A DNA stretch of 64,000 nucleotides from an uncultured virus (IMG/VR IMGVR_UViG_3300046471_000229) (IMGVR_UViG_3300046471_000229); one strand, 5' to 3'. Counted from the stretch's first letter, positions 25,761 to 59,163 are shown. Numbers and translations are program-made. The notes: generated by a model not told the origin, from the sequence alone.

Positions 25761-26225
25761 TTAACATGGTGGGTAATCGGGACGTTCGTAAGTATTCACG
25801 CCTGAGGCTCTTAGCCGCTCCATGTGCGCCGGAAAGTCGTTTCGCGGGTAGATCATCACCATTTGATCTATCCCCAGGTCTTTCTCTACTTCGTAATTAT
25901 GGCGGCTTACGTGCTTCATGCCTTTGCTGAGCCACTTGTACATCTCTTTACTAGCGCAAATGGCACGAGAGTAGCCCCACGATCTGCGGCATTGTAAATC
26001 GAGCTTGCCTTGCTTCCAGTTAAGGCGACGGCCAACCCCGTTATAGCGCACCATCACATCCAGGTCGCTGGGTTCTTGAGACCCCTTAACGGTCGAACCG
26101 AAAATCCAAACCTGATAAATCCTGACGGCTTCGAAATCACAAAGCGGTGTTGCCAGCAAACCATTAACTGCCTTGCAGCGTTCAGCAATCCGTTGCGCAT
26201 AGCGCTCAGCCAAATCTATTTTCAT
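25761..26225 (-). CDS. minimal nucleotidyltransferase (Pol-beta superfamily)
   Basis: WIFGSTVKG...SDLDV. Confidence 0.7.
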   Translation of the reverse strand: MKIDLAERYAQRIAERCKAVNGLLATPLCDFEAVRIYQVWIFGSTVKGSQEPSDLDVMVRYNGVGRRLNWKQGKLDLQCRRSWGYSRAICASKEMYKWLSKGMKHVSRHNYEVEKDLGIDQMVMIYPRNDFPAHMERLRASGVNTYERPDYPPC

Positions 26226-26295: not shown

Positions 26296-26733
26296 TCAGC
26301 CGTGAATGGACATCACCACGTCAGGATCAGCCGTTTTGGCAAGCCCAGGGCCCACAAGCACATAAACGGTGTTCACCGTTTCAAATAGCCCACTATGGGT
26401 AAAGGAGACCTGAAGCGTGCTGCGTACCCACTGACCACGGTAAAAGCGCCCAGCGCTGTCCTGAAGCACGTTGTGGGCATAAACCAGGTACGGCTCGCTG
26501 CCTATGCGTTGGATTGCCTTCAAAGAACGCTCATCGGCGTCCATCTTGATCAGCATCCAGTTTGAGACCAGGCAGTACGGTTTATTCGGAAAGTGACTCT
26601 TCACAAATGCAATGGCCTCCCCTTCGGTCATGTCTAAACCCATGAGCGATTCACCCGGAGTATTCAGGAAGCCTGAGACTGTGACTAGGTAGCTGTCTAC
26701 TGACTGCGGGAAAGTCGGCTCTTTTACGTTCAT
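26296..26733 (-). CDS. conserved hypothetical protein, related to 62584..63024
   Basis: DSAGRF..G.WVRST...FETVNTVYVLVG; likely start Met at 26733. Confidence 0.6.
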   Translation of the reverse strand: MNVKEPTFPQSVDSYLVTVSGFLNTPGESLMGLDMTEGEAIAFVKSHFPNKPYCLVSNWMLIKMDADERSLKAIQRIGSEPYLVYAHNVLQDSAGRFYRGQWVRSTLQVSFTHSGLFETVNTVYVLVGPGLAKTADPDVVMSIHG

Positions 26734-26843
26734 AGGGCTTATCCAATCTTTACGGTCTGTGGAGAATGCGGTGACTTGGTGGTTGTCACCTTCCGCCGCT
26801 TTGCAATCATATGGCATGAATTGCCGGCATCACAACTCGGTTG

Positions 26844-29639
26844 TCAGCCTTCGTGGTAAAACCCAAAACTCTCATCTCGATGGATTACCCGGTCTACCTG
26901 ATCAGGCTGGTAGTTGGCCAACTCGAAGACCATCGCCTCGTCCGGCTGGATGCCCAGCTCGATGCTCTTCTCCACCAGATACTCATCTGGCCAGACCAGC
27001 CAGGCGTTGGAAGCCGGCGCTGTCCTTCGGTAAGCCCGACGCTCCCAGGAGGATTTGTCAGTCGAGTTAACGACTTTCTGCAACACGAACTCACCGCAGT
27101 CCTGATCAACTGCAATCCGGTACCGATCCGTCGACGTTGACCCGCGCAACGGGTACCGCTCGTAGAAAGCTTGGGTCATCCAAGCCGCTTCGCACCCTTC
27201 CCGCCTGAGGATGATGTCCATACCCTCCTCAAGGCGCTTGCTGATGATTCTGTCCTCGTCCTTGGCAATCTGCCGCCCACTGAGTCGGAATGACGCGTCA
27301 ATGCGCTCCAGCGGTGTCTCAGCCCCGCCCACGTGAAGCATCTCACTGATCTTTGTTGAACTGTACCGGCAGGCCCTGACTTCGAATCCTGGTTTAACAA
27401 AACATGGTTGGCTGCCAAGCCCCTTACGCTGGCTCCCCTTCAGCGACCGTAGGTTGCAATCTAGGATCACCACGTTTGGCTTATCCACTTCCACCAGGCG
27501 ATGCCGGTTCACCCGCCCACTGGTTTGCACGATGGACTGAGCGCTCGACGGTTCGATGACAGCCCAGTCAAAGTCATGATCGCGCCCCACTTCTTCCACC
27601 GGCGTTGCGATGACAATCATTGGGACAGAGCCAGCCCCTGTCGGGAAAGCAGCGAGCAGCTCTGGATCTGACCCTAGCCTCTCATGGTGACCGCTTTTAC
27701 GGTTAAGCAGGTAGTCGAGCCTTTGTTCCTTCAGGTGCCGCTGAATGCGCAGCTCATTCGAGTGGTAACACGCGATCTTGGGCCCGGTGTCGCCGAATTG
27801 CTCACTTAGGTACCTGGCCACTTTAATGGCGGTCGAGATGTTGGCCACCCTAATCAGACCGAATGACAGGTGTTTGCCCGGCGCCAGCTCCCATTGGTGG
27901 TCGGCATGCAACTGCAGAACCGAATTCCGGATAATTTCGAGATAGGCCTGATCACTGTTCCCCGCCACCTTGGCGATCCTCGGCTGGCGATACACCGCCT
28001 TCTGCTGAAGGGAGTCGATCATTTCCGCGTAGCGGGCTGCGACAAAGGCACCGAACTCGCCGGCACCGTCGTGGAACCCAGCTGGCGGCAACAAATCATC
28101 GATCATGACCACAACCGGCCTCGTTGAGCCAGGCTCTACGGCCCCCCGCATCCGGGCACCACTCAGAAACGCTTCATGTACCGCAACCGCCACCGGTACC
28201 GATAACGTCGCCGACGAGCAAATCACATTCCGCCCGAGCATGGCACTCAGCTGTATCAGCCGCAGCACTGCGACCATCGCTTGGGGGTCGTAACTGTCTA
28301 TCTCGTCAAGTATGAGATCGCTGTTCATGACACGGAGCAGCGCCAGCGCATGGTGCCCCTGGCGGCCCGGCTCACTGGCGTTGATGATGAAGTCGATGGT
28401 CGACACAAGAACGGGTGGCATCAGCAGCTGGGGGGCCTTCTGGCTCCTTGCGAGAGGCTGAAGCCAAGTCGGAATCACGAAGTCATCACAGCTGACCTCG
28501 ATTTCTGTTTGATCACCGGCGTTACCATTCATTGAGAAGGCGTCCGAACTCGCCCTATGCATCTGCTCTGTGATGCGGTCACCGATCACGACCGCTATTT
28601 CGTCTGATCTGATTTGCAGGTCGATGCGAAGACTATCGCCGGTTTGGAGTGTCAGAGAGCGAAGGTTGAGAGCAACACAGAACCGAGGGTTTGCAGAAAG
28701 CGCACACGCTATTTTCGCATTGCCTCTGGTCTTTCCCGCCCCGGTGCCGGCGCCGCAGAAAACGAGTGCTGGAGCACAATTATTTTCTCTCACCGCCTTC
28801 AGGTAGGCCACTGCCTGATCTTGCCAATCGAAACGTGGATGCGTTGCCGGCGCCATGATCGAGGCAATCGTGGCCGGGCTCAACCCTGGGTACTCTTGCC
28901 TGCCCATTTCCATAGCAATGTCACCCGCCAGGTCGCCAACACTTCGCAAATGCCAATCGAGGGGCTGGTCATATCGACGCTGCCCGCTGGAAGTGTCCTT
29001 AGTATTTGCGAAAAGGCATGACGCCGCAGGCTGGCCGTGCAGCGCTTGATAATCCACTGAAGAAATGAAGTGGTCGGCCAGGATCAGGGCTGCTCGAGAA
29101 AATACGGCTATCAACTCCCAGTGTTCTGCTCCGTAAGCTTCGGGAATCCTGGTAAGAAGCCTCGAAGCGTCTGCGTAGAGGCCGCCATCGATATTTCCGG
29201 CAGACCTCACGCCACTAACTGGGATGTGTCCTTGTATGTGGGCCGCACCACTCAGAGCAATATCGCGCCCACCGAGGAGCTTATGGTGACTGACGAGCAG
29301 GTACTCGAGCACCCTGTCACGATCTACCAAACCTTTCTTCAGCGACTCGCAGTCATTGATCAACGACTGAGTGCTGGCGCCAACCCACGCAGCTTCAAAT
29401 CCGTGCACTCTCGCCGCCTTAAGCAGCGCGTACGAAAGCCATTCATGGCGAACCGGTTCGACCCGTCGCTCCCGGCCTTGTACGGAGTCTTCAAGCTTCA
29501 GGAAGAAATCTAGGCTGCTCTTGCCCCAATCATGGAGATAACCAGCCGCACGGGCCAGAAGGCAGGCTTGATCGAGCCATGTTGTGAGGCTAGTTTCACG
29601 CTGGATGGAGCTCGAAATGGGGACGAGAAGTGAGGTCAC
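26844..29639 (-). CDS. cas3: type I-F Cas3 HD nuclease/SF2 helicase lacking the N-terminal Cas2 domain
   Basis: HD motifs LHDWGK, RHE, SHH, ADH; Walker A GTGAGKT; ALNLRSLTLQTG; DEID; SAT; EVGRDHDFDWAV; QTSGRVNRH. Confidence 0.95.
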   Translation of the reverse strand: MTSLLVPISSSIQRETSLTTWLDQACLLARAAGYLHDWGKSSLDFFLKLEDSVQGRERRVEPVRHEWLSYALLKAARVHGFEAAWVGASTQSLINDCESLKKGLVDRDRVLEYLLVSHHKLLGGRDIALSGAAHIQGHIPVSGVRSAGNIDGGLYADASRLLTRIPEAYGAEHWELIAVFSRAALILADHFISSVDYQALHGQPAASCLFANTKDTSSGQRRYDQPLDWHLRSVGDLAGDIAMEMGRQEYPGLSPATIASIMAPATHPRFDWQDQAVAYLKAVRENNCAPALVFCGAGTGAGKTRGNAKIACALSANPRFCVALNLRSLTLQTGDSLRIDLQIRSDEIAVVIGDRITEQMHRASSDAFSMNGNAGDQTEIEVSCDDFVIPTWLQPLARSQKAPQLLMPPVLVSTIDFIINASEPGRQGHHALALLRVMNSDLILDEIDSYDPQAMVAVLRLIQLSAMLGRNVICSSATLSVPVAVAVHEAFLSGARMRGAVEPGSTRPVVVMIDDLLPPAGFHDGAGEFGAFVAARYAEMIDSLQQKAVYRQPRIAKVAGNSDQAYLEIIRNSVLQLHADHQWELAPGKHLSFGLIRVANISTAIKVARYLSEQFGDTGPKIACYHSNELRIQRHLKEQRLDYLLNRKSGHHERLGSDPELLAAFPTGAGSVPMIVIATPVEEVGRDHDFDWAVIEPSSAQSIVQTSGRVNRHRLVEVDKPNVVILDCNLRSLKGSQRKGLGSQPCFVKPGFEVRACRYSSTKISEMLHVGGAETPLERIDASFRLSGRQIAKDEDRIISKRLEEGMDIILRREGCEAAWMTQAFYERYPLRGSTSTDRYRIAVDQDCGEFVLQKVVNSTDKSSWERRAYRRTAPASNAWLVWPDEYLVEKSIELGIQPDEAMVFELANYQPDQVDRVIHRDESFGFYHEG

Positions 29640-29662
29640 TGAGCACCAACATATCGCATGTA

Positions 29663-29691
29663 TTGACGGAGGCCGGCATAGTACATATATT
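29663..29691 (+). promoter_or_regulatory. putative sigma70 promoter of the CRISPR array
   Basis: TTGACG-N17-TATATT followed by CCGCCCCCATC. Confidence 0.7.
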
Positions 29692-29782
29692 CCGCCCCCA
29701 TCTGAAGCCCTGGGTCTTTCTGCTGGTCAGGGAAATCCCTCTCACGCCGGGCACGTTCTTTAACATTCTCCTTTCCCCGTTT

Positions 29783-30846
29783 GTCCTCCACCGCCAAGGT
29801 GGTTTTGAAATGAATTTACCAACCAGGGTCAACTCAAGGTTTGTTCTCCACCTTGTGGGTGGTTTTGAATGATTAGCGGTTAAGTACTAGCTGCACAGCT
29901 GTTCACCACCTGCGGGTGGTTTAGAAATACAACGTGGTACCGACCCTTGTGAGCGCAGCGTTGACCAACGTCCAGGTGGTTTTTATAAGGATTGGCACGA
30001 CCCTGACGTCCCCCACCCTGAGGGTGGTTTTGAAAGCCGTTGGATGGCAGCTTGGCATTTACCACATTGAGGTGGTTTTGACACAGAAAGATCAAGCGGA
30101 CATTGGTTCTCCACCGTTCAGGTGGTTTTGAAAACTGGATAAATGACTTAACCACCTGCTTGGTGGTTTTGACACAGGAAGATCATGCGGTCAGTAGTTC
30201 TCCACCGACCTGGTGGTTTTGAGATCTATAAAAATGAAATTTTTCACCACTTTCGCTGTGGTTGTGAAATATCGTATTGCCCCGCGTCCATGGTGGCATG
30301 CATTCACCACTGCTGAGGTGGTTTGTGAAAAGACTGTAGGTACTGTCGTCCACCCTTGTGGTGGTTTTGATATTGCTAATGGCCATAGGCTTCATCCGTT
30401 TACCACCCACCGGTGGTTTTGAAATCAGCCTGGATACCGTTTGCTGTCCACCCTTGAGTGGTTTCGAAGTCATAGTGCTCCCCACGTGTTCCCCACCCTA
30501 AAGGGTGGTTTTGAAGAAGACTGAACCCAGCTTCCTGTTCTCCACTTTCGAGTGGTTTGGAATCTATATTCTGCGCTCCCGCGTGCCCGATCCCCGATTT
30601 ATCGGGGCTGGGCACGCTCGTTCTTCATCCCCACCGCACTGGTGGTTTAGAAGAAACACAATTCGAGTTCACCACCCTGCGGGTGGTTTGGAAAAACCCC
30701 AGTGAAGACGCGATTCTGTACCATTTGTTCACCACCCTACGGGTGGTTTTGAAGAGACTGTAGCCCGTCGACGCCATTCGCCTCCTCAGGCGACTGTTTC
30801 GAACAATCGGCTCTCCAGCGTCCGCCACCTTCGGGTGGTCTGAGCT
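29783..30846 (+). CRISPR. atypical type I-F CRISPR array, ~20 repeats with variable loops and 13-65 nt spacers
   Basis: consensus GTTCH-CCACC-N(4-6)-GGTGG-TTTTGAAA (27-29 nt), same geometry as the I-F repeat GTTCA-CTGCC-GTATA-GGCAG-CTAAGAAA; repeat starts at 29783, 29843, 29901, 29960, 30008, 30057, 30106, 30147, 30197, 30242, 30302, 30345, 30398, 30443, 30488, 30537, 30626, 30667, 30727, 30820; flanked by cas3 and cas8f. Confidence 0.92.
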
Positions 30847-30980
30847 TTTTCTGCGAAATTGCGGAGTCAATCAGCCAGCTTCCGATGGGTTTTTTACGTT
30901 TGAAGAATGAACCGTGGAGATTCCGTAAACCCTTACGCCGCAACGTTTTTCGCGATTTTTACCCAAACATAATTCAAGTG

Positions 30981-31009
30981 TTGACGAGTCATAACGTATT
31001 GCATATATT
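30981..31009 (+). promoter_or_regulatory. putative sigma70 promoter of the cas8f-cas6f operon
   Basis: TTGACG-N17-TATATT followed by GCCGCCCCATC. Confidence 0.7.
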
Positions 31010-31041
31010 GCCGCCCCATCACGACTAACGATGCACACAAA

Positions 31042-32142
31042 ATGACAAAAGAATCAGCGACAGCCGAAGCTGCAGATATCAAGGAGTGGAAAAGCCATCC
31101 TCTGGATGACTACTCCACAGCCATCGAAAAGCTTGTGCACCACTCGTTCAAAACTGTGAACACCAATGCTGAAGCCGGTGGCGTCCGGATCGCTAAAACG
31201 AACGGCACCAAACTGCCCTACGTTGGCGTGCGCACTCTGCTGGGCCACGGCATCGATGTCCTGATGGATCGCTACGAAGGCGCTGCGACCTCTCGGATCT
31301 ACTCCCAGATCAGTGAAGTTGCCCAGGGCCGTGTTGAAGGCGTTCCACCCCTGGAACTTGCTCATATCCAGCAATCCCTGGATCTGATCAAATCCAGGAG
31401 CCTGGTGCAGAGCCGGCAGATCTCGCCACGTGTGCGTCAGATCTTGCTGCCGCGCCCTGATGGTGGCTACCTGAGTGTTACGCCAATCTCTGCTGCCGGC
31501 GTTAGCCATCAGCTGAAGTCGTCCGCGCTGGCTCACAACCAGATGATCCATGAGCTTCGAAAGGCCAAGGATGAATCGGCTGAAGGCTTCAGGCGCATTA
31601 CGCTCGCCGACTTCCCTATCGGCGGCGCTAAGCCCCTGAACCCTGGCGGCATGGTGTTTTCCATGCGAGCACCTATCGTTGGGAAATTTCCGGCCATGGC
31701 CAGCGAGCGTTCACGCGCCCTTTCGCTGCATTACTACGGCATTCGCAACCTGCGTTTGCCCAAGGGCCTGCAAGCGGAGTACGTGAGCTGGCGCAACAAG
31801 CACAAAGGCATGGTTGAGGCTGATCAAGCTACTCGCACCGAGCATGCCAATTTGATCTCGCGCATGGTTCAGCACCTGCTGCGCTTGGGCTCGGACGCTT
31901 ACGAACTGCTCCAGCAAAATGCCGACAAACTCCCAGGCGGCGTGCTGCTGAGTGCCCAGGTCGGTCACCTTGAAGCTGGCCTGATTGATCCAGATCGTCG
32001 CACGACCAACTGGCGATACGACGCTGGTTCGGCACTTGCCCGGCGCTTCGCAGCGATTGAACGCGACGACACGCGCCAATACGAATATTCGCAAGGCGAG
32101 ATCAATGCGATTGCCGGCCTGGTGAGGAATAGCCTGAAATGA
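31042..32142 (+). CDS. cas8f: type I-F Cascade large subunit Cas8f (Csy1), short and divergent
   Basis: HSFK..NTNA, YVG..TL, RQILLP..DGGYLSVTPI and GGAKPLN correspond to Csy1 motifs; first gene of the operon. Confidence 0.8.
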   Translation: MTKESATAEAADIKEWKSHPLDDYSTAIEKLVHHSFKTVNTNAEAGGVRIAKTNGTKLPYVGVRTLLGHGIDVLMDRYEGAATSRIYSQISEVAQGRVEGVPPLELAHIQQSLDLIKSRSLVQSRQISPRVRQILLPRPDGGYLSVTPISAAGVSHQLKSSALAHNQMIHELRKAKDESAEGFRRITLADFPIGGAKPLNPGGMVFSMRAPIVGKFPAMASERSRALSLHYYGIRNLRLPKGLQAEYVSWRNKHKGMVEADQATRTEHANLISRMVQHLLRLGSDAYELLQQNADKLPGGVLLSAQVGHLEAGLIDPDRRTTNWRYDAGSALARRFAAIERDDTRQYEYSQGEINAIAGLVRNSLK

Positions 32143-32948
32143 GCTACTACCTGATTCTGAAACACCTTAACGTTCGCCATGCCAACGCATTGTCGAGCAA
32201 CTACGCGGTTACGGCGGCGCCCATCATGGCGGTCAACCTCTTTGCCCATGCAATGGGCCTGAAGATCGGTTGCCAGGCAGACGGCGTGGCGATGATCCAC
32301 CACGACGCCAAGTACTTGGCTGAGATGGACTTCCACAGCGGCTATAAGCGGCCTCAGTTCCAGCAGCGCCGCGCCTCAACCTACATCGACAAGAACGACT
32401 ATGTCGGTACCACCATGGCGCTCTCGTTGCAGCCGGTGGCCACCGTTCATTTGAAGATCAGTCTGGTAATCGAGTTTGCGACCAAACCTGACTTGGGCCT
32501 GGTAAAAGAGTTCCTGCATGAGGGTCGTCTTGCTGGCGGTGTAATCGAAAGCTACGCCACCCCGCAGGAATTCCATGAAAGCGATGACAAGCTGTTCGAT
32601 GCCATCCCTGGTAACGGGTTCTGGCTCATCGACCGTCAAGACTTGTTGGTTGGCGAAAACCCTGTGGATCTGCTGGTCAGCGAACTTGGTACTCGGGCGC
32701 AGTCTGACGCAAACGACTCGTGGCTCACTCCGGTTGTGCCGGCTTACGCCTTGACGTCCGAGCCTGCTGAACGTGTTGTGGGTGTCAGGAGCCTCTCAGA
32801 TGGCACCTACCCGGCCCACGCCTACGGCGAGCCACTGATGGGCCTGGCGCAGTACGTTTCAGTTCGTGAATTCGAGGGCGAATCCCTCCCGTTCTGGCGC
32901 AGCCGCTGGATCGACGACACCGTTTTCGCTGTAAGCACAACCTACTAA
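32139..32948 (+). CDS. cas5f: type I-F Cas5f (Csy2)
   Basis: LNVRHANALSS...FAHAM, RLAGGVI, YGEPLMGLAQY; overlaps the cas8f stop. Confidence 0.9.
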   Translation: MSYYLILKHLNVRHANALSSNYAVTAAPIMAVNLFAHAMGLKIGCQADGVAMIHHDAKYLAEMDFHSGYKRPQFQQRRASTYIDKNDYVGTTMALSLQPVATVHLKISLVIEFATKPDLGLVKEFLHEGRLAGGVIESYATPQEFHESDDKLFDAIPGNGFWLIDRQDLLVGENPVDLLVSELGTRAQSDANDSWLTPVVPAYALTSEPAERVVGVRSLSDGTYPAHAYGEPLMGLAQYVSVREFEGESLPFWRSRWIDDTVFAVSTTY

Positions 32949-32968
32949 TTTTTTAGAGAAGACCGACA

Positions 32969-34051
32969 ATGACCACACCGACTATTAAATTTTCGAAACT
33001 CCCAGGCGTCCTGTCTTTTACACGCCGTATCAACGTCACCGACTGCCTGTTCTTCAGTGGCATGCCTGACGGCTCGCTGAAGCCCCTGCTGGTAACCCGC
33101 AGCGGCCTGCGTGGTACGCAGAACATCAACAAGAAGGCCACCGGTGATCGCCAGGAAGTCTCGAACATCCAACTGACCGACTCGGCCAAAACCGATGTTG
33201 AAGCGGCGTCCCTGGTTGTTCAGATGGGCATCGGCTTCTATGCGCTGCAGAATGGCCTGAACTCCTGCGCTCTGTCCAAGACCGACGACGAGTCGTTGCT
33301 GGGTCAGTTCAAGGCCAGCTTTAACGGCTTCCTCGAACGCAGTGCCGGCGCCACCGGGATCTCTGCAGGTCTTCAAGAAGTCGCCAACCGCTATGCCCGA
33401 AACATCGCCAATGGTCGTTGGCTGTGGCGCAATCGTCAGTACGCACAGACCGTCAGTGTGACCGTCCAGTGTGGCGACGACATCATGACTTTCGACGCCC
33501 TGAAGACACCGCTGAACCGCTTCGACAACTACACCGCCGATGAACTTAAACTGGGCGGCTACATCGCCAGCTGCCTGGCCGGCCAGGCCCAACACAAGCT
33601 GACCGTCGGTGCCATCCTGAACTTCGGTGAAGGCATGAACGGCAGCATGGAAGTCTACCCATCTCAGAACTACCTGGGCGGAGACAAGCCAAAAGGCTTC
33701 GCTCGTTCGTTGTACGCGGTCGGTGAGTCCTTCCTGACCCCTGCAACTGACCTGATGGCGCTGCAGTCCAGCCGTATCGTCGGCCAGGCGGCATTGCGTG
33801 ACACCAAGGTGGCCAACGCCTTGCGCACCATGGATACCTGGTACCCTGATTTCGAATCCCACGGCCTGCCAATCTCGGTTGAACCGTGCGGTGCGAACCT
33901 GGACGCTCAAAAGATGTTCCGTGGCAACAAGGAATCGTCCTTCACCTTCATGCGCCAGCTCAATGCCACTGACGTCAACAGCGGCGAAGGCATGTTCATG
34001 ATCGCCTCGCTGATTCGTGGCGGCGTGTACTCCGAGGGTGGTGACAAGTAA
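32969..34051 (+). CDS. cas7f: type I-F Cas7f (Csy3)
   Basis: VLSFTRRI, YARNIANGRWLWRNR, EVYPSQ, KVANALRTMDTWYP, LIRGGVY. Confidence 0.95.
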   Translation: MTTPTIKFSKLPGVLSFTRRINVTDCLFFSGMPDGSLKPLLVTRSGLRGTQNINKKATGDRQEVSNIQLTDSAKTDVEAASLVVQMGIGFYALQNGLNSCALSKTDDESLLGQFKASFNGFLERSAGATGISAGLQEVANRYARNIANGRWLWRNRQYAQTVSVTVQCGDDIMTFDALKTPLNRFDNYTADELKLGGYIASCLAGQAQHKLTVGAILNFGEGMNGSMEVYPSQNYLGGDKPKGFARSLYAVGESFLTPATDLMALQSSRIVGQAALRDTKVANALRTMDTWYPDFESHGLPISVEPCGANLDAQKMFRGNKESSFTFMRQLNATDVNSGEGMFMIASLIRGGVYSEGGDK

Positions 34052-34602
34052 TGAAGCCCGCCACTTATGTTGACTACACCTTGAAGGTGGCCAACAGGGC
34101 GTCCGTTGCGGAGGTGTCCCAGGGCGCCTCCCTGCTGATGAAGGCACTGCACGCTGGCTTTTCCGAGTACAAGGAGAAGTTCGCGCTAGCCCTGCCGTTC
34201 CTCGACGAGTCCAGCCCTCAGAAGAAGCTGTCCACGTTCCGGGTGTTTGCCCAGAGCATGGAAGATCACGTCATGCTTCACGAATTCATGCAGCGCTCGG
34301 GGTATCTAGACACCTACTTTGTCGCCGGCTTCCCGAAAATGGTGCCAGCGGACTTCGCCGGCACGTACAAGGCCTTCAGCCGCGTGCGGATCAAGTCCCG
34401 AGCCGATGGCGTCAAGCGCCTGAAGAAAATGCTCGAGGTCGAATCCAACGGCAATCCATGGTTCAACGTCCAAAGCCGTGAAAACGGCCACCGGTTCCGG
34501 ATGTACGTCCAGAGCCACGTTGCAGAGGCAGGTAGTGAGGGGGTTCTCAACGGTTACGGGATGTCGCAGGCCGAAAACCTGCAATACCTACCACACCTTT
34601 GA
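34051..34602 (+). CDS. cas6f: type I-F crRNA endoribonuclease Cas6f (Csy4)
   Basis: KALH (catalytic His position), ALP, RVFA, SRENGHRF, NGYGMS glycine loop, LP terminus. Confidence 0.88.
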   Translation: MKPATYVDYTLKVANRASVAEVSQGASLLMKALHAGFSEYKEKFALALPFLDESSPQKKLSTFRVFAQSMEDHVMLHEFMQRSGYLDTYFVAGFPKMVPADFAGTYKAFSRVRIKSRADGVKRLKKMLEVESNGNPWFNVQSRENGHRFRMYVQSHVAEAGSEGVLNGYGMSQAENLQYLPHL

Positions 34603-34681: not shown

Positions 34682-35242
34682 ATGCCCTACCGTTCTCCAG
34701 CTCTAACATGCCACACCAATGATACCGCCGTCCTGCGCGACTATGTCGAGCGCATCAAGCTCCGCCATGGGATTAGCCAACGTGACCAGGCAGCAGCCCT
34801 TGGCGTAGGCTGGACGACCTATCGTGATTGGCTCAATGGCACTGCGAAGTGGCCAAAAACGGCGCAGATAGCCCTGGAATCTTGGGCGCTTGCGCCGCTG
34901 GAAAACGACGATGACGACATTGCTGCACGGTGCCCGATCAACTTGCTGCTCGATGACGAACGAGCCCTGGTTGCGGCTTGGCGCTGCATACGCGGTGATG
35001 ACAAGATCTACAACCTGCCCTTGCCGTCGACGGTGAACATGTGGCCCGTGGAAATGCTCAAGTGTTTTGCCCGCGATGGTCACCTATACCCGGCATTTCA
35101 GATGGCGGTTAAGGCTGAATTGTATGACTTGGACGGGAACGAGGTACCACTGCCGAAAGTCGGGGCCGAGATGGTGTATCTCGCCGCATACGAATGGTGC
35201 GCACCAGAAGTTTTTAAGCGCCTGACCGAACTGATCGAGTGA
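34682..35242 (+). CDS. HTH regulator with an Aca1-like N-terminal domain and an unknown C-terminal domain
   Basis: GISQRDQAAALGV...P.TAQIALE pattern. Confidence 0.65.
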   Translation: MPYRSPALTCHTNDTAVLRDYVERIKLRHGISQRDQAAALGVGWTTYRDWLNGTAKWPKTAQIALESWALAPLENDDDDIAARCPINLLLDDERALVAAWRCIRGDDKIYNLPLPSTVNMWPVEMLKCFARDGHLYPAFQMAVKAELYDLDGNEVPLPKVGAEMVYLAAYEWCAPEVFKRLTELIE

Positions 35243-41409: not shown

Positions 41410-42669
41410 CTAGCTGCACTGCGGTAGATCCCCCCACCGATAGGTGTAGCCCGGCGAGAGCATGTCCCGGCGCATCACCCAGTCTGGATCCGGTTTTAGC
41501 CTGGCGGAGTGAATCGCCTGACGGCCATACCGCAGATTGATCGTGTCCATCACCGCCCCGATCTTGTCAGAGCCTGCCGGCGCCGGCGCCGCAAACAAAT
41601 CCTCGGTGAATTCACCGCGCTGGTGAAGCCTGGTCAGCCGCACCGAACACTTCGAATACGCGTACCCCTTGCGATAGATACGCTCCAAGCCCGCCAGCGC
41701 CGCGCTCAGGAGGATTCGCGTGTCGTCGGAGGGATTGGTCAACTTCATGTCGATGCTGTTGTAATAGCGCTTAGAGGCCTCCTCGAATTGCCCGGTCTGT
41801 ACCGACACGCTCACCTGCTGACAGAGAGAACGCTGCGAGCGCATCTTTTCGGCAGCGACACTGGTGTAGCTCGCTGTGGCCTGGCGCAACTCATCCAGCA
41901 GATGAACGCGCTGCCCGAACATGCAGGACTTCATAATTTCCTGTTTCAGATCCGGGGCCTGGTGCATCTCCAGGCAGGCCTCGCCGGCGAGTTCCCTGGC
42001 GGTGCGTTCAACATTGACATTGAACATCTTGCGCAGCGACTTCCGGTCGTACCGGGACAAGTCCCAGGCCGTCTTGATGTTCATGATATCCAGGTGAGCA
42101 CCGAGCTTTCTGCCGATCCCCCACACTTCCCCAACGGGGGCTATGCGCAGCAGCTTTTCCTGCCGGTCTTTAGCCGTCAGATCGACCACCCCCTTGGTGC
42201 CCGGCCAGGTCTTCGATGCCCACTGCGCCAGCTTGGCCAGTGTTTTTGTCGTGGATATGCCCATACCCACCGGCATGCCGACGTCGCGCATGACCTTATC
42301 TTTTATCACAAAGCCCAACGCTTCCAAGCTCCCTGGAACGCCAGTTAGATCGGCCCAACATTCATCAATGCTGTAACACTCAATATCGGGTACTTGCGAA
42401 TGGATGGTCTGCATCACGCGGCGGGAGATGTCTGCGTATAGGGCGTAGTTGCTGGAGAACACGTTAACGCCCTCCTGGCGCAGGTAATCCTTCACCTGGA
42501 AGTACGGCACGCCCATCTTTACACCAAGCGCTTTGACCTGCTTGTTTCGGGCAATCACGCATCCGTCGTTGTTCGCGAGTACACAGACGGGCTTGTCCGT
42601 TAGGTCGGGTCGAAACAGCATTTCACACCGGGCGTAAAAGCTCTCACAGTCGATCAGTGCGATGACCAT
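41410..42669 (-). CDS. umuC: Y-family DNA polymerase V catalytic subunit (UmuC/RulB-like)
   Basis: DCESFYARCE, NNDGCVIAR, SSNYALYAD, YSIDE, WVMRRDMLSPGYT. Confidence 0.95.
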   Translation of the reverse strand: MVIALIDCESFYARCEMLFRPDLTDKPVCVLANNDGCVIARNKQVKALGVKMGVPYFQVKDYLRQEGVNVFSSNYALYADISRRVMQTIHSQVPDIECYSIDECWADLTGVPGSLEALGFVIKDKVMRDVGMPVGMGISTTKTLAKLAQWASKTWPGTKGVVDLTAKDRQEKLLRIAPVGEVWGIGRKLGAHLDIMNIKTAWDLSRYDRKSLRKMFNVNVERTARELAGEACLEMHQAPDLKQEIMKSCMFGQRVHLLDELRQATASYTSVAAEKMRSQRSLCQQVSVSVQTGQFEEASKRYYNSIDMKLTNPSDDTRILLSAALAGLERIYRKGYAYSKCSVRLTRLHQRGEFTEDLFAAPAPAGSDKIGAVMDTINLRYGRQAIHSARLKPDPDWVMRRDMLSPGYTYRWGDLPQCS

Positions 42670-43106
42670 CAGAACCTGGTCGCCCGCAGATCTCGAACCA
42701 CAAAGTCGACGACACCCCAGACGTTAACCTCCTCCGTTTTTTCGATGGCCACCCTCTCCCCGCAGGCGGATACCGTTACCAGGTTTAAAGCTCCAGCCTG
42801 CCCTTCGGCCAGGAAGACCCGATAGACCCCATCCGCAGCGAACACCGCGATCTTTCCCGGCGCCAGCTCGGTCTGACGATTCACAATCAACAGGTCACCC
42901 GCGTGCAGGCTCAGTCCAGCGAGCGCTTCACTTGTCAGGCGCCAGAAGAAGATATGGGGCGCCCCCAGGCCGGTGATCTCGTCGAGCGACAGTTGTAGTT
43001 GCTCGTAATCCGCAGCCGGCGAGCTGAAACCAGTGATCTTGATCTTTTCTGGGAGGTTGGCCAGGGTGCCGGATCGGCGTCCTGGTGAGATAAAGGCTTC
43101 TGACAT
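42669..43106 (-). CDS. umuD: UmuD/RulA-like subunit with catalytic Ser/Lys apparently substituted
   Basis: GFSSPAADY, GDLLIV, VWGVV; coupled to umuC; likely start MSEAF at 43106. Confidence 0.8.
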   Translation of the reverse strand: MSEAFISPGRRSGTLANLPEKIKITGFSSPAADYEQLQLSLDEITGLGAPHIFFWRLTSEALAGLSLHAGDLLIVNRQTELAPGKIAVFAADGVYRVFLAEGQAGALNLVTVSACGERVAIEKTEEVNVWGVVDFVVRDLRATRF

Positions 43107-43130
43107 GATGGCGGAGATCGGGGAGAAAGA

Positions 43131-43146
43131 CTGTATATCTATCCAG
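43131..43146. promoter_or_regulatory. LexA (SOS) box upstream of umuDC
   Basis: CTGTATATCTATCCAG = CTG-N10-CAG, about 25 bp upstream of the umuD start. Confidence 0.85.
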
Positions 43147-43221
43147 CAAATGGGTATCTTAGTCAAGCTCCGCCTGAAAATGGCACCTTGCAGCCGACTG
43201 AAGGCGTTTCAACAAGCTCAG

Positions 43222-44190
43222 TCAGCTCAATGGGTCGACTGGCGTCTCTATCGACACTTCCGTTGCCGCTATGTCAGCCCTCAATGCCACAAAAACCCCA
43301 TGCCTGACGCGCCCCTTGCGAGTGATTTCGGCAAACTTCACCTCGCAAACAAGAATGGGTTGTACCCAAATCACGTGCCTGACTGTCACTGCTCCCGGAT
43401 CGATCAGTGCGCTGGTGTCGGTCACGATGGGCTTGAGCGCCTTATGGACGCTTTGCAGATTCTTGGCGTTGAAGCCGGAACCTACCCTGCCCGCATACTT
43501 CAAGGCACCAGCATCGTCGTAGCTCGCAAGCAGCACTGATCCGAGCCCGGTCGCGGATTGGGTGAAGCCGACGATTACGAACTCCTGGCGATTCCGGCAT
43601 TTGAGCTTCAGCCAGTCGGTGCTCCTGCCGGAGAGGTATGGACTGCCGGCGCGTTTGCCAATCAGGCCCTCCAGATTCATGGCGCAGGCGGATGCCAGGA
43701 GTGACTCCACGGGCTGATCAAAATCCTCGGAGATCCGAACTTGTTCCGTCTCGTGGCCTGAGAGCAGTTTCTTGAGCTTCGCTCTGCGGAACTCAAGCTT
43801 CCTGGGCCTTAGGTCGGTCTTGTCGTAGAACATCAGATCAAACACGTACAGGACGAGCTCCCCGGTATTCTTCTGACCGATTGCCTCCTGTAGGGCGCCA
43901 AAGTCAGGCCGACCCTCGGCATCCTGCATGACCAACTCGCCATCCAGCCAGGCGTCCAGAAGGCCGAGCGACTCAACCGCCGCCGCGACGCTCTTGAACT
44001 TCGACGTCCAGTCAGCACCATTTTTCGTGTAAAGGGTTACCTTTCCAGCGTGAACCCTAGCCATCATTCGATAGCCGTCGAACTTTATTTCCCAGAAGTA
44101 CTTTCCATGGGGAGGCCTGGTCGCCAGCGAAGCGAGTTGAGGCGGGAACCTTGGAGGTAGTTCGGCGGATGATCCTTTGGTACTTGGCAT
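43222..44190 (-). CDS. ATP-dependent DNA ligase (LigD ligase + OB domains only)
   Basis: EIKFDGYR, LDGE, FDL, EGLIGK, WLKLK, YAGRVGSGF. Confidence 0.9.
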   Translation of the reverse strand: MPSTKGSSAELPPRFPPQLASLATRPPHGKYFWEIKFDGYRMMARVHAGKVTLYTKNGADWTSKFKSVAAAVESLGLLDAWLDGELVMQDAEGRPDFGALQEAIGQKNTGELVLYVFDLMFYDKTDLRPRKLEFRRAKLKKLLSGHETEQVRISEDFDQPVESLLASACAMNLEGLIGKRAGSPYLSGRSTDWLKLKCRNRQEFVIVGFTQSATGLGSVLLASYDDAGALKYAGRVGSGFNAKNLQSVHKALKPIVTDTSALIDPGAVTVRHVIWVQPILVCEVKFAEITRKGRVRHGVFVALRADIAATEVSIETPVDPLS

Positions 44191-54422: not shown

Positions 54423-55469
54423 ATGCGCAAGTTAGTAACCGTTCGACGAGTGTCCTCGCTTAAGCCCATTCCCGAAGCCGATCTGATCGAGTGCGCCACC
54501 GTCGAAGGGTGGAAATGCGTTGCACTGAAAGGCGATTTCGCTGTTGGGGATCACTGTCTCTACTTTGAGATTGACTCATTTCTGCTCGATTCCGACCCTC
54601 GTTTTGAGGTTCTGATGAAGGACAGTAAGCGGGAATGGAATGGCCTCGTTGGGATGAAAATCTCGACCCGCGAGTTCCGCAAGCAAATCTCCCAAGGTTT
54701 GGCCCTGCCACTTAAGGACTTCCCTGAGGTGCAGCAGCTCATTGAAGGGTTGGACGACAAGTCGATCCGCGCTATGGATTTCACGGACGTCGTTGGCGTC
54801 GTCAAGTGGGAAGCCATTGTTCCTGATGAAATCATGGAAACAGTGCGTGGCGGTATGCCCACCTACCTCCCGGCTACCGGTGGTGAACGCATTCAAAACA
54901 TCCCGGCGTTGATTGAAGACTGCCCCGAGGAAATGTTCGAGGAGAGCGTGAAATTGGACGGGTTTTCCATGACCGTTTTCAAGCATGGCGATGATCACGG
55001 TGTGTGCGACCGGAGCTGGTGGTTCAAAGACGACACCGTGAATGAATACATGACGACTGCGGCCCGCATGGGGCTGGTCGAAGCCTTGAAAAAGCACCCG
55101 ATGAGTTTAGGTCTGCAGGGTGAGCTGATTGGCCCTGGCGTGCGCAAAAACAAGGAAAAGCTGGCTCAGAAAGAGTTCCGCCTGTTCCGCATCTGGGATA
55201 TTGCCAACAGCCGTCGATGCACTCCGGAGGAGCGAGATCGCATCGTGCGCGAACTGCGTGAGCTCGGGGCTAAGCTGGAAACCACTGTGTTTACGGGTAT
55301 TTTCAAGCTGTCTGAGCTAGGGACAATGGAAGACATGCTGGCGAGAGCCGATGGCCCATCTCTGAACCCGAACACAAAGCGGGAAGGCCTGTTCTACCAC
55401 AGCGTCCACGGTCGCGGCTCGTTCAAGGTCATCAGCAACCGTTACCTTCTGAAGAACAGAGAAGCCTGA
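54423..55469 (+). CDS. ATP-dependent RNA ligase (Rnl2/DRB0094-like) with N-terminal OB domain
   Basis: YFEIDS, ISQGL, KLDG, QGELIGPG, REGL, FKVISNRYL. Confidence 0.88.
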   Translation: MRKLVTVRRVSSLKPIPEADLIECATVEGWKCVALKGDFAVGDHCLYFEIDSFLLDSDPRFEVLMKDSKREWNGLVGMKISTREFRKQISQGLALPLKDFPEVQQLIEGLDDKSIRAMDFTDVVGVVKWEAIVPDEIMETVRGGMPTYLPATGGERIQNIPALIEDCPEEMFEESVKLDGFSMTVFKHGDDHGVCDRSWWFKDDTVNEYMTTAARMGLVEALKKHPMSLGLQGELIGPGVRKNKEKLAQKEFRLFRIWDIANSRRCTPEERDRIVRELRELGAKLETTVFTGIFKLSELGTMEDMLARADGPSLNPNTKREGLFYHSVHGRGSFKVISNRYLLKNREA

Positions 55470-57384: not shown

Positions 57385-57699
57385 ATGAAATTCCCTCAGA
57401 ACAACCCATTCATGCATTACCGCGACAACCTGATTCTTGCTGCGTTGGTTGAAATTGATCATTTGAATCGCCTCAGCGCCGCGTCGAGAAGCCTCTCCAA
57501 TGCGCTAGCTCCCTTCAATGAGCCAGAGGGCTTTCTGGGCCTTGTAAACGAACTGGCCTATAACGCTATCAATCACTCGGTACCGGAGATGATTGCTGAC
57601 CAGGTGCAGGAGGAATTGGAAGAGATGCCCATCACTCAGCTGGAACTGGATGATGTACTCAATAGGCCAATCGGCTCGGCCCTTCAGACTACTCTGTGA
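57385..57699 (+). CDS. hypothetical protein
   Basis: 104-aa ORF. Confidence 0.5.
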   Translation: MKFPQNNPFMHYRDNLILAALVEIDHLNRLSAASRSLSNALAPFNEPEGFLGLVNELAYNAINHSVPEMIADQVQEELEEMPITQLELDDVLNRPIGSALQTTL

Positions 57700-58954: not shown

Positions 58955-59163
58955 GCAATAACCTACCTTCACTTTCCCTTCGTTGTAACGAGAATGTTCA
59001 AGATATGGTAGCTGGTCAAGGGTTAATCGCTGCGATGACCATATGGTGAAATGGCCCCTCTAATCGATGGTAAACCCGCCTGAAAGGATCATTAGCCACA
59101 CAGCCATTCTGATATGATCTGCTCATTGCGCAATTCCACCAGGTCGCCCAGGAGGCCACTGCT

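Follow-up and report, generated by a model that had tools for sequence, protein, structure and literature searches.

A megaplasmid-borne type I-F1 derivative without adaptation genes and its probable battery of crRNA-like regulators

A CRISPR-Cas locus of type I-F found repeatedly on ~1 Mb Pseudomonas megaplasmids is probably a derivative of type I-F1 that now lacks Cas1 and the Cas2 part of Cas2-3, and the array beside its cas genes probably functions as a hard-wired set of crRNA-like regulators. The copy analyzed here lies in a stretch of 64,000 nucleotides (the window) assigned to an uncultured virus (IMG/VR IMGVR_UViG_3300046471_000229), and the nearest genome examined, G001 (100% complete, 90 contigs), carries the same locus at 98% identity. 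An earlier note on this DNA had proposed a mobile-element I-F derivative without an acquisition module, its array placed between divergent cas3 and Cascade genes. Both points hold: the carrier is a megaplasmid, and cas3f is divergent from cas8f-cas5f-cas7f-cas6f with the repeat region (29783-30846) in between. The genes are as follows.

26296..26817, minus strand: DUF6957 gene, directly downstream of cas3 (PF22275, E=6e-37)
26844..29639, minus strand: cas3f, 931 aa, GTG start; HD nuclease and SF2 helicase, without a Cas2 domain
31042..32142, plus strand: cas8f-like large subunit, 366 aa (Pfam Csy1 E=0.004, 16.7 bits against a cut-off of 22.7)
32139..32948, plus strand: cas5f (PF09614, 47.1 bits against a cut-off of 25)
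32969..34051, plus strand: cas7f (PF09615, Csy3, 205 bits against a cut-off of 25, 2e-60; TIGR02566, 215 against a cut-off of 158)
34051..34602, plus strand: cas6f (PF09618, 40.5 bits against a cut-off of 25)

The Cas7f (Csy3) signature, Cas5f (Csy2) and Cas6f (Csy4) of type I-F are all present; the NCBIfam equivalog scores for cas5f and cas6f fall under their cut-offs. The cas8f-like protein is 32% identical to the protein in the cas8f position of a canonical I-F1 locus (L010), and a PDB sequence search with it returned no match. In its AlphaFold model, residues 220-366 are all helical at pLDDT 80-93, so that a C-terminal helical bundle is confidently predicted. The top 12 Foldseek matches of the model were all entries for I-F Csy complexes, and 10 of these were chain A in complexes of the P. 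aeruginosa type (best E 1.6e-4, probability at most 0.99), at a TM of only 0.23 and with a mean pLDDT of 64 for the whole model. The window, L009 and pPL1 each have the full set of five cas ORFs intact, and pPLMAXa has four (68-100% identity); the Cas proteins of the window, pPL1 and pPLMAXa plasmids are 68-86% identical. Eight further full-length Cas8f relatives (365-368 aa) were found in the protein collection.

Cas3f proved to be what the earlier note had described, namely a 931-aa protein with the HD motif about 36 residues in, a stop ~90 nt upstream and no Cas2 domain. Specifically, the HD dipeptide occupies residues 36-37, and upstream the reading frame is closed by a stop 30 codons away. 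In the alignment with P. aeruginosa Cas2/3 structures (E=7e-76), residues 25-76 pair with 112-160 and residues 174-785 with 300-916; because the alignment opens at residue 112, the first ~110 residues of P. aeruginosa Cas2/3, which form its Cas2 domain, are without a counterpart. Likewise, a Pfam scan did not match PF21384 (the Cas2 domain of I-F Cas3) in the window protein; this family was matched at residues 1-78 of the 1060-aa Cas3 homologue in L010. TIGR02562 scored 559.2 bits and narrowly missed its cut-off of 565.95, since the Cas2 portion of the profile has nothing to match. PF22590 was also matched, and Walker A, a DExD-type box, a SAT-type motif and Q..GR..R were read directly from the translation. 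The window has the Cas3f helicase-nuclease of type I-F, then, and not its Cas2-Cas3 fusion, and the shortened N-terminus recurs several times among ~50%-identical relatives. In the pPLMAXa genome (G002), Cascade genes and array are present and the Cas3 query matched nowhere. Cas3 is optional for Cascade and the array, and the earlier claim that the system “keeps interference” is left unsupported, even though Cas3 looks intact in the window. The DUF6957 gene adjoins cas3 in L009 and pPL1 as well, and both genes are missing from the pPLMAXa locus, so that the two may be linked.

The window was searched by tblastn with four adaptation proteins, namely Cas1 and the Cas2 domain of the I-F locus L010 and the I-E Cas1 and Cas2 of L018, giving a best E of 0.29, and Pfam identified no cas1, cas2 or Tn7 genes among 43 of its larger ORFs, in agreement with the first reading. 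An HMM search for cas1 and cas2, of the kind that the earlier note had named as a check for the whole replicon, was run on the G001 genome in six frames; positive controls were detected, and no Cas1 (PF01867), Cas2 (PF09707, PF09827) or I-F Cas2 domain (PF21384) was found. The Cas1 expected in a type I-F locus is absent, that is, from the window and from the whole of G001. With Cas1 and the Cas2 domain lost, the arrays would no longer grow. The nearest outgroup, L010, is by comparison a canonical I-F1 system (Cas7f 48% identical) with a Cas2-3 fusion, cas8f/5f/7f/6f, cas1 and an array of 68 identical repeats at a 60-nt period.

The locus fits none of the variants I-F2, I-F3 and I-F4. Type I-F2 is marked by the absence of the cas8f large subunit and is ruled out by the 366-aa cas8f-like gene upstream of cas5f. 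Type I-F3, the Tn7-like CAST form, is characterized by tniQ/tnsABC linkage, a Cas8f-Cas5f fusion and the absence of Cas3; it is ruled out by the presence of Cas3, by separate cas8f and cas5f genes and by the lack of transposase families in the 43 flanking ORFs scanned with Pfam. Type I-F4, described in the available portion of its report as having an HNH nuclease fused to Cas8f and usually no Cas3 (PMC12669027), is ruled out by the presence of Cas3 and by a 366-aa Cas8f without an HNH match. The accessible part of one survey gives adaptation modules in 36% of plasmid CRISPR-Cas systems vs 88% of chromosomal ones (PMC9071438). Since plasmid systems commonly lack such modules, missing adaptation is by itself unsurprising.

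Like type I-F1 of P. aeruginosa PA14 and Pectobacterium, the window system has separate cas8f, cas5f, cas7f and cas6f genes, a Cas3f helicase-nuclease, 28-nt repeats that form a hairpin and carry an 8-nt handle, a period of 60 nt at full-length spacers, a putative CC PAM and a predicted Cas8f C-terminal helical bundle. Unlike I-F1, it lacks cas1 and the Cas2 domain of Cas3, its cas3 and its Cascade operon point away from each other on either side of the array, its repeats differ among themselves, and its cas-proximal spacers are mostly 13-25 nt long. The Vibrio phage ICP1 type I-F system, as far as the available text describes it (bioRxiv 10.1101/2024.03.09.584257), is also borne on a mobile genetic element and has small Cas proteins, and its 930-aa Cas2/3 formed the second-best group of solved-structure matches to the window Cas3. 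ICP1 retains the Cas2 domain (residues 1-78) and Cas1, however, and the window has neither. In the same account, ICP1 Cas8f has no helical bundle, so that Cas1 bridges Cas2/3 to Cascade; the window Cas8f, in contrast, is predicted to have the bundle.

The array and its surroundings comprise the following features.

29663..29691, plus strand: promoter-like site ahead of the array (10/12 consensus matches, 17-nt spacer)
29783..30846, plus strand: repeat array, ~20 I-F-type 28-nt repeats at irregular spacing (41-60 nt and longer)
29811-29842, 29871-29900, 29928-29959, 30270-30301 and 30695-30726, plus strand: canonical-length spacers
30084-30105 and 30175-30196, plus strand: duplicated 22-nt psi-spacer pair, the seeds differing at position 4
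30330..30625, plus strand: conserved short psi-spacers (30330-30344, 30373-30397, 30425-30442, 30470-30487, 30517-30536, 30564 onward), syntenic with pPL1 and pPLMAXa
30626..30694, plus strand: CreR-like unit of repeat, 13-nt psi-spacer (30654-30666) and repeat
30963..30979, plus strand: candidate target, a CC PAM (30963-30964) and a 15-nt protospacer that adjoins the cas8f promoter's -35 hexamer
30981..31009, plus strand: cas8f operon promoter-like site (10/12 consensus matches, 17-nt spacer)

About 56 nt around the promoter-like site at 29663..29691 are conserved in pPL1, pPLMAXa and G001. In the array repeats, the stem of the Cas6f hairpin and the handle are preserved and the loops hypervariable; across 93 aligned repeats from four plasmid arrays, the stem and the opening bases of the handle are either invariant or conserved to at least 90%, and the loop columns have no majority base. 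The 32-nt spacers of the first reading are found in part, since canonical length (30-33 nt) applies to only five of ~19 spacers, the others being 13-25 nt or longer stretches containing degenerate repeats. None of the five matched the window or the G001 plasmid, and protospacers for the 32-nt spacers were not found in the phage and plasmid collections searched. A sister plasmid has a remote array of 47 repeats with mostly 32-nt spacers, some of them duplicated.

A sign of selection on the short units may be seen across plasmids: the same short spacers occur in identical order on three diverged ones (window, pPL1 and pPLMAXa). For nine orthologous psi-spacers of the window and pPLMAXa, differences occur in 12 of 18 cases at positions 6 and 12 and in 0 of 90 at positions 1-5 and 7-11 (Fisher test, 6.7e-12), with 3' drift at positions 13-20 (24 of 49 differ). 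The chance of all 12 differences landing on two of 12 positions is 4.6e-10. Orthology was judged partly by similarity, which inflates the 0/90 figure yet leaves the confinement of differences to positions 6 and 12 unexplained. In five window-pPL1 pairs, positions 6 and 12 differ in 7/10 and positions 1-5 and 7-11 in 1/50. This pattern is the apparent footprint of Cascade seed pairing. The earlier description of a frozen, divergent array stands insofar as the repeats diverge; “frozen” falls short of what, judging from seed conservation, synteny and one self-promoter target, is a selectively maintained set of short guides.

One of these guides has a target that sequence matching makes secure, and this is the plasmid's own cas8f promoter. 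The 30654-30666 psi-spacer, extended by the first two nucleotides of the repeat that follows, matches 30965-30979 except at positions 6 and 12; none of 2000 shuffles paired at the 13 positions observed, the highest value being 9. In pPL1, another spacer occupies this place in the array and matches that plasmid's own, different promoter; the match overlaps the -35 hexamer and again fails at positions 6 and 12 only. In pPLMAXa the autoregulatory spacer is retained, and its target was not found within 10 kb of cas8f. Repeat-like flanks, a PAM-proximal partial match to the effector promoter, a cognate PAM and covariation in pPL1 together mark the unit as a predicted case of CreR-type autorepression. 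As in CreR/CreA systems (available text of bioRxiv 10.1101/2023.03.10.532045), a psi-spacer flanked by degenerate repeats has a site with a cognate PAM adjoining the effector-operon -35, with PAM-proximal partial complementarity over 13-15 positions. The part of that report at hand demonstrates CreR for I-B, I-E and V-A and gives I-F as a prediction only. Unlike the stand-alone CreR/CreA mini-array it describes, the window unit sits within an array of ~20 units, at least eight others of which show the same seed conservation yet do not match the cas promoter.

From what the sequences show, namely the gene content, the lack of adaptation genes, the build of the repeats and spacers, the pattern of conservation and the matches, we infer how transcription, processing, binding, repression and cleavage might proceed at this locus. 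The effector genes cas8f, cas5f, cas7f and cas6f are retained together with a stand-alone Cas3f. The promoter-like site at 29663 would drive transcription of the array, and Cas6f would cut the transcript at the conserved hairpins, yielding guides with spacers mostly of 13-25 nt, presumably too short for full R-loops. Such guides would place Cascade on DNA beside a CC PAM through ~11-16 PAM-proximal positions, without Cas3 cleavage. Guide 30654-30666 would bring Cascade to the -35 edge of the cas8f promoter for negative autoregulation of the CreR kind, and the remaining conserved guides would recognize conserved targets at other sites. Ordinary Cas3-dependent interference would fall to the few 32-nt spacers and to the remote 47-repeat array of the sister plasmid.

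It is also conceivable, if unlikely, that the locus serves ordinary defence or inter-plasmid competition without adaptation, in which only the 32-nt spacers matter, used with Cas3 and newly supplied in trans or by recombination, and the short units are harmless leftovers from spacers since deleted. Cas3 is indeed intact in three of the four plasmids, the sister plasmid's long array with its duplicated 32-nt spacers would suit such a role, plasmid systems often lack adaptation modules (available part of PMC9071438), and a complete I-E system lies 16 kb off on pPL1. Remnants, however, would not hold positions 1-5 and 7-11 invariant while 6, 12 and 13 onward drift, nor retain their order across plasmids with Cas proteins as diverged as these, nor covary with the cas8f promoter, and G001 has no Cas1 of any type for adaptation in trans. 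Still less probable is a decaying relic, disappearing with no part of it selected for CRISPR function. The loss of cas1, cas2, the Cas2 domain and, in pPLMAXa, Cas3 would be expected of a relic, as would degenerate repeats and the failure to find protospacers in the phage and plasmid collections, but the cas ORFs are intact across four plasmid loci, eight more full-length Cas8f relatives exist, the repeat stem and handle are invariant, and the seed pattern speaks against neutral decay.

The least probable reading is a Cracr-type RNA anti-CRISPR array, whose short guides would mimic host regulatory crRNAs and silence host I-F cas/creT promoters. Multiplexed, array-like sets of short-spacer I-F crRNA-like RNAs encoded by mobile genetic elements are known, and the window resembles them; in the available text on Cracrs (bioRxiv 10.1101/2024.10.29.618823), these hijack host Cas proteins and target host cas/creT promoters. 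The window element, in contrast, supplies its own Cascade and Cas6f, its repeats match those genes' own arrays, and the one secure target is its own cas8f promoter. In addition, G001 is without Cas1, and searching G002 with the Cas3 query did not reveal a second Cas3. Regulation by the plasmid's own guides, the preferred reading, finds a functional parallel in plasmid type IV-A systems, which, in the available portion of PMC11656645, are likewise borne on plasmids or megaplasmids, usually lack adaptation modules and carry out crRNA-guided transcriptional repression, one Pseudomonas megaplasmid system targeting host pilN. Such repression is only proposed for the window, which differs from type IV-A (DinG, full-length spacers) in its I-F effector, Cas3 and short, seed-only guides.

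Finally, it is tempting to ask what the other guides bind. Their seeds match 5' or regulatory regions of host genes (trxB, tkt, zwf, carA, the atpI promoter, the rplJ leader and rplM/rpsI), and those of the duplicated pair 30084-30105/30175-30196 correspond to two naturally occurring alleles of the 5' coding region of host trxB; in pPLMAXa, where the trxB-type spacer is single-copy, this spacer has a mismatch to the allele of its own host at seed position 4. With 12 specified bases, ~1 chance match per genome is expected, and the observed 1-2 for most seeds, and 7-10 for one, are within chance range. Seed matches on the sister plasmid were not enriched (9 vs 10 for reversed controls), a longer pattern for one psi-spacer had no match in 201 genomes, and the zwf match of the same psi-spacer was not at zwf in two other genomes. 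As targets, the housekeeping-gene matches are no more than suggestive; 5'/regulatory regions of host housekeeping genes are the best candidates for the other conserved guides, at roughly even odds. Taken as one joint reading, a little short of an even chance, the I-F Cascade of a ~1 Mb plasmid, with Cas3 dispensable, would use conserved seed-only guides for autoregulation and for multiplex CRISPR interference on host core genes, namely the ATP synthase operon promoter, the rplJ leader, rplM/rpsI, carA, tkt, zwf and trxB. If this is true, host growth physiology would be under plasmid control through CRISPR guides matched to genus-wide conserved sites.

The type I-F locus between positions 26844 and 34602 of the window carries its array between a divergent cas3 gene and the Cascade genes, as follows:

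26844-29639, minus strand: cas3f, a 931-aa ORF matching TIGR02562 (559 bits) and PF22590
29783-30846, plus strand: array of about 20 repeats, between cas3 and the Cascade genes
31042-32142, plus strand: candidate Cas8f/Csy1 gene, with a weak Csy1 match (E = 0.004) below the cut-off
32139-32948, plus strand: Cas5f gene, named by family scans
32969-34051, plus strand: Cas7f gene, named by family scans (205 bits)
34051-34602, plus strand: Cas6f gene, named by family scans

The translated cas3f ORF has the HD region at its N-terminus (H36-D37), an in-frame stop lies 30 codons upstream of its start, and the solved Cas2/3 of P. aeruginosa aligns to it only from P. aeruginosa residue 112 onward. In the window protein there is no match to the Cas2 domain that Pfam models for I-F Cas3; the same model matches residues 1-78 of the 1060-aa homologue at L010, a canonical I-F1 locus serving as outgroup. 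Searches for adaptation genes were likewise negative: tblastn of the window with four adaptation proteins, taken from L010 and from the I-E locus of plasmid pPL1, reached an E of no better than 0.29, and neither cas1 nor cas2 turned up when 43 window ORFs were scanned with Pfam. The whole-replicon search covered the nearest genome carrying the same locus, G001 (100% complete), where a six-frame HMM search yielded no match to Cas1, Cas2 or the I-F Cas2 domain, with positive controls. Together, the anatomy of Cas3 and these negatives in the window and in G001 confirm the observation in the earlier note of a Cas2-less, 931-aa Cas3 without accompanying cas1 or cas2. According to the available text of PMC9071438, adaptation genes are often missing from plasmid CRISPR-Cas systems.

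The Cas8f candidate has only 13 relatives in a collection of 5.8 billion proteins, and a sequence search against solved structures gave no match. Its predicted model includes a confident C-terminal helical bundle, and the best fold matches of the model are I-F Csy complex entries, mostly chain A. In P. aeruginosa, this helical bundle of Cas8f recruits Cas2/3, and it is absent from the phage ICP1 system, as the accessible part of bioRxiv 10.1101/2024.03.09.584257 describes.

G001 has the window locus at 98% identity on a contig of 1,059,468 bases, and the window is collinear with 188-253 kb of that contig; aligned blocks are 82-98% identical, most of them 96-98%. Three named records of large replicons carry related loci:

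L009, a Pseudomonas serbica plasmid contig of 1.06 Mb: Cas7f 100% identical
L008, plasmid pPLMAXa of Pseudomonas sp. PLMAX, 0.95 Mb: Cas7f 84% identical
L011, plasmid pPL1 of P. silesiensis, 1.17 Mb: Cas7f 84% identical

The sole further locus among 185,579 species genomes is L010, in a Bdellovibrionota MAG (Cas7f 48%), with a Cas2-3 fusion, cas8f, cas5f, cas7f and cas6f, cas1, and an array in which 68 identical repeats recur every 60 nt. Since this nearest other locus is a canonical I-F1, the megaplasmid form is itself a derived, adaptation-less I-F1. In a tree of 118 Cas3f relatives, all four megaplasmid-type proteins are Cas2-less and nest in a clade of about 50% identity, whose members are, by turns, full fusions with HD at residue 118 and forms shortened at the N-terminus with HD at 29-74; some of the latter may be gene-calling artefacts on short contigs. 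In the rest of the tree, nearly all proteins are fused. The Cas1 of pPL1 belongs to a complete I-E system 16 kb away (within 756000-775999 of the pPL1 record), which comprises an 886-aa Cas3, Cascade-sized ORFs, Cas1, Cas2 and an array of 21 near-identical repeats of another type than the I-F repeats, at a 61-nt period. In pPLMAXa, Cascade genes and array are present, though the whole genome holding it (G002) gave no Cas3 match.

The genes around the locus vary between plasmids. A DUF6957 gene (26296-26817) lies 26 nt downstream of cas3 and is adjoined by a small nucleotidyltransferase gene (25761-26225) with weak MntA-like and DUF6932 matches. Both cas3 and the DUF6957 gene are found in L009 and pPL1, and both are missing from pPLMAXa, which has two family-less ORFs in their place; the flanks of its Cascade locus (L008 739-2040 and 12256-17262) hold an IS605-type TnpB gene and several shufflon/type IV pilin-like genes. 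Directly 3' of cas6f in the window is a 186-aa ORF (34682-35242) without a family match, which could be an accessory or anti-defence gene. The segment 34603-35396 is missing from the otherwise collinear G001 contig and thus marks a variable slot beside the cas operon. Farther out (5141-6832, 41410-44190, 54423-55469 and 57689-58972), the window encodes a Shedu SduA_C-domain protein, umuDC beside an ATP-dependent DNA ligase, an RNA ligase with a PHA02142 OB fold and a HipA-family kinase; chemoreceptors also occur in the flanks. This is an accessory region rich in defence and repair genes.

The repeats of the window are laid out as in type I-F, with a 20-nt 5' part ending in a hairpin, followed by an 8-nt handle. 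When 93 repeats of four arrays are aligned, conservation reaches 90% or more, up to invariance, in the stem and the first bases of the handle, and the loop columns have no majority base. Spacing in the window is irregular, with spacers 1-10 measuring 32, 30, 32, 20, 21, 22, 13, 22, 17 and 32 nt and spacers 11-19 measuring 15, 25, 18, 18, 20, 62, 13, 32 and 64 nt; the short, conserved spacer-like units among them are referred to here as psi-spacers. The 62-nt stretch, which follows the psi-spacer at 30564, contains a perfect GC-rich palindrome (30588-30616) with no T run behind it; it may serve as a protein site or form an RNA structure.

A further array, with 47 repeats, is present in G001 some 630 kb away (G001:C1:852221-855034, minus strand), with repeats as diverse as the cas-proximal ones and spacers mostly of 32 nt. 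Several of these spacers are duplicated, and the array therefore shows growth by duplication, not acquisition. One spacer is present three times and another two to three times, a variant of the trxB-type 22-nt psi-spacer is included, and the distal end decays into irregular short units. Protospacer searches of plasmid and phage collections with this array returned nothing beyond repeat matches to pPL1 and one chance-level match. Its leader has no similarity to the promoter region at 29640-29782, and the two promoter-like sites of the window have one 16-nt stretch in common (E = 0.16).

Window, pPL1 and pPLMAXa each carry the short spacers of the cas-proximal array in identical order, and, when taken from sequence by coordinate, their differences fall at particular positions. 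Specifically, the nine orthologous pairs of window and pPLMAXa differ at 12 of 18 bases at positions 6 and 12, at none of 90 at positions 1-5 and 7-11 (Fisher 6.7e-12), and at 24 of 49 at positions 13-20. The five pairs of window and pPL1 differ at seven of 10 and one of 50 bases in the first two classes, respectively. The Cas proteins encoded by the window, pPL1 and pPLMAXa are down to 68-86% identity. Between the window and its close relatives, conserved spacers have changed only at position 6 (one spacer) and position 18 (another).

Orthologous spacers were recognised partly by their likeness, which biases the figure of 0/90. This bias leaves the concentration at positions 6 and 12 unexplained, because all 12 differences fall on two of 12 positions, an outcome with a probability of 4.6e-10. 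Conservation of the spacers as coding sequence was also considered and discarded; the differences have a period of six, not three, counted from the handle of each repeat. Structures of the I-E and I-F complexes show that in type I Cascades one spacer base in six is turned outward and stays unpaired. Read against that geometry, the pattern is the trace expected of selection acting on Cascade-guided pairing across some 11 PAM-proximal bases.

One of these units has a match ahead of the cas operon itself. The 13-nt spacer at 30654-30666, together with the first two bases of the next repeat, corresponds to 30965-30979, positions 6 and 12 being the sole mismatches. The presumed PAM, CC, stands directly before that site, and a single base separates its end from the -35 hexamer of a promoter-like site (30981-31009) upstream of cas8f. 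When the 200 nt ahead of cas8f were shuffled 2000 times, no shuffle exceeded nine paired positions, and 13 were observed. At the equivalent place in its array, pPL1 has a different spacer, the first 14 positions of which match a CC-flanked site overlapping the -35 hexamer of pPL1 itself, which differs from that of the window; here too, positions 6 and 12 alone are mismatched. The unit thus has the anatomy of a CreR-type RNA (a Cas-autoregulating crRNA-like RNA), as laid out in the accessible text of bioRxiv 10.1101/2023.03.10.532045, with spacer and promoter covarying between plasmids. pPLMAXa retains the window-type spacer, and no target was found near its cas8f. When all spacers were compared with the 1.06 Mb G001 plasmid contig, full-length or by seed (the PAM-proximal positions), only the cas8f-promoter site stood out, and seed matches were not enriched (nine, versus 10 for reversed controls).

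Host targets were sought as CC plus seed patterns in G001 and G002, with genes named by NCBIfam (the name carA is putative, read by eye from the translation). The 16-position seed of a duplicated 22-nt spacer has one match in each genome and none for controls, on the antisense strand of trxB at codons 8-13. A variant of this seed with another base at position 4 matches 17 of 201 Pseudomonas genomes (16 of 200 once the one marked as unpublished is excluded; controls 0/201), and both of the matches inspected are the same trxB site. Because both position-4 variants match there, the two window copies fit two naturally occurring wobble alleles of trxB. In pPL1, the variant of this spacer matches one trxB allele over 20 positions; that of pPLMAXa has a seed mismatch to its own host's allele.

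Three seeds with a single G001 match and no control match point to transketolase codons 12-17 (16 contiguous positions; of 30 genomes sampled, 24 have the site intact), to the 3' end of rplM, with rpsI beginning some 55 nt farther on, and to the -10 hexamer of a site that resembles a promoter ahead of atpI. Two seeds have two G001 matches, one of each pair in a 5' region: for one seed in the rplJ leader (same site in 3/3 genomes), for the other in zwf codons 9-13, although the latter seed does not match at zwf in two other genomes. A multi-match seed (seven matches, control three) has one of its matches in carA codons 7-11 in both genomes. The candidate site of the rplJ leader is covered by a match to the Rfam family 'Pseudomonas sRNA P27' (L103 1381-1569, 202 bits), on the strand opposite rplJ; Rfam gave no match at the atpI-promoter and rplM loci.

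In a null set of 241 chance matches of control seeds in 800 kb of the G001 chromosome, 16.6% were located between -150 and +60 relative to a gene start, with starts called crudely. Against this null, at least seven of 15 observed matches lie in such regions (P = 0.006), as do 4/4 single-hit seeds (P = 0.0008). The numbers of host seed matches are those expected by chance, and a long pattern for the psi-spacer at 30517 had no match in 201 genomes. On these sequence matches, we regard it as roughly an even call that the short guides target host genes.

Among known systems, the effector module is I-F1-like, but the Cas2-3 fusion and Cas1 that define I-F1 are absent. The system fits neither I-F2 nor I-F3, nor does it fit I-F4, in which, by the available text of PMC12669027, HNH is fused to Cas8f, usually without Cas3. 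Several of its elements have precedents, as far as the accessible parts of the sources go: CreR autoregulation (bioRxiv 10.1101/2023.03.10.532045), MGE arrays of short I-F crRNA-like RNAs (bioRxiv 10.1101/2024.10.29.618823), and repression of genes, a host gene included, by plasmid type IV-A systems (PMC11656645). The literature searched yielded neither an adaptation-less I-F system with a stand-alone Cas3f on Pseudomonas megaplasmids nor a seed-conserved guide battery, and for both, the supplementary tables of the preprints on CreR and on Cracr (MGE-encoded RNA anti-CRISPRs) may list related loci. The megaplasmid I-F system with stand-alone Cas3f, the conserved battery of seed-only guides with its position-6/12 signature, and the possible host housekeeping targets of the guides all appear to be undescribed in that literature.

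Taken as a whole, the locus would show the fate of a type I CRISPR-Cas system on a mobile element after adaptation has been lost: not a relic, but a fixed set of guides, selected precisely at those bases that take part in pairing within Cascade. The freedom of positions 6 and 12 would then provide an evolutionary readout of Cascade geometry, by which guides with a regulatory role could be spotted in degenerate arrays elsewhere. If genuine, the host matches would represent natural tuning of host energy, translation and pentose-phosphate genes by the CRISPR guides of a plasmid, and would offer a compact, short-guide I-F scaffold for multiplex repression.
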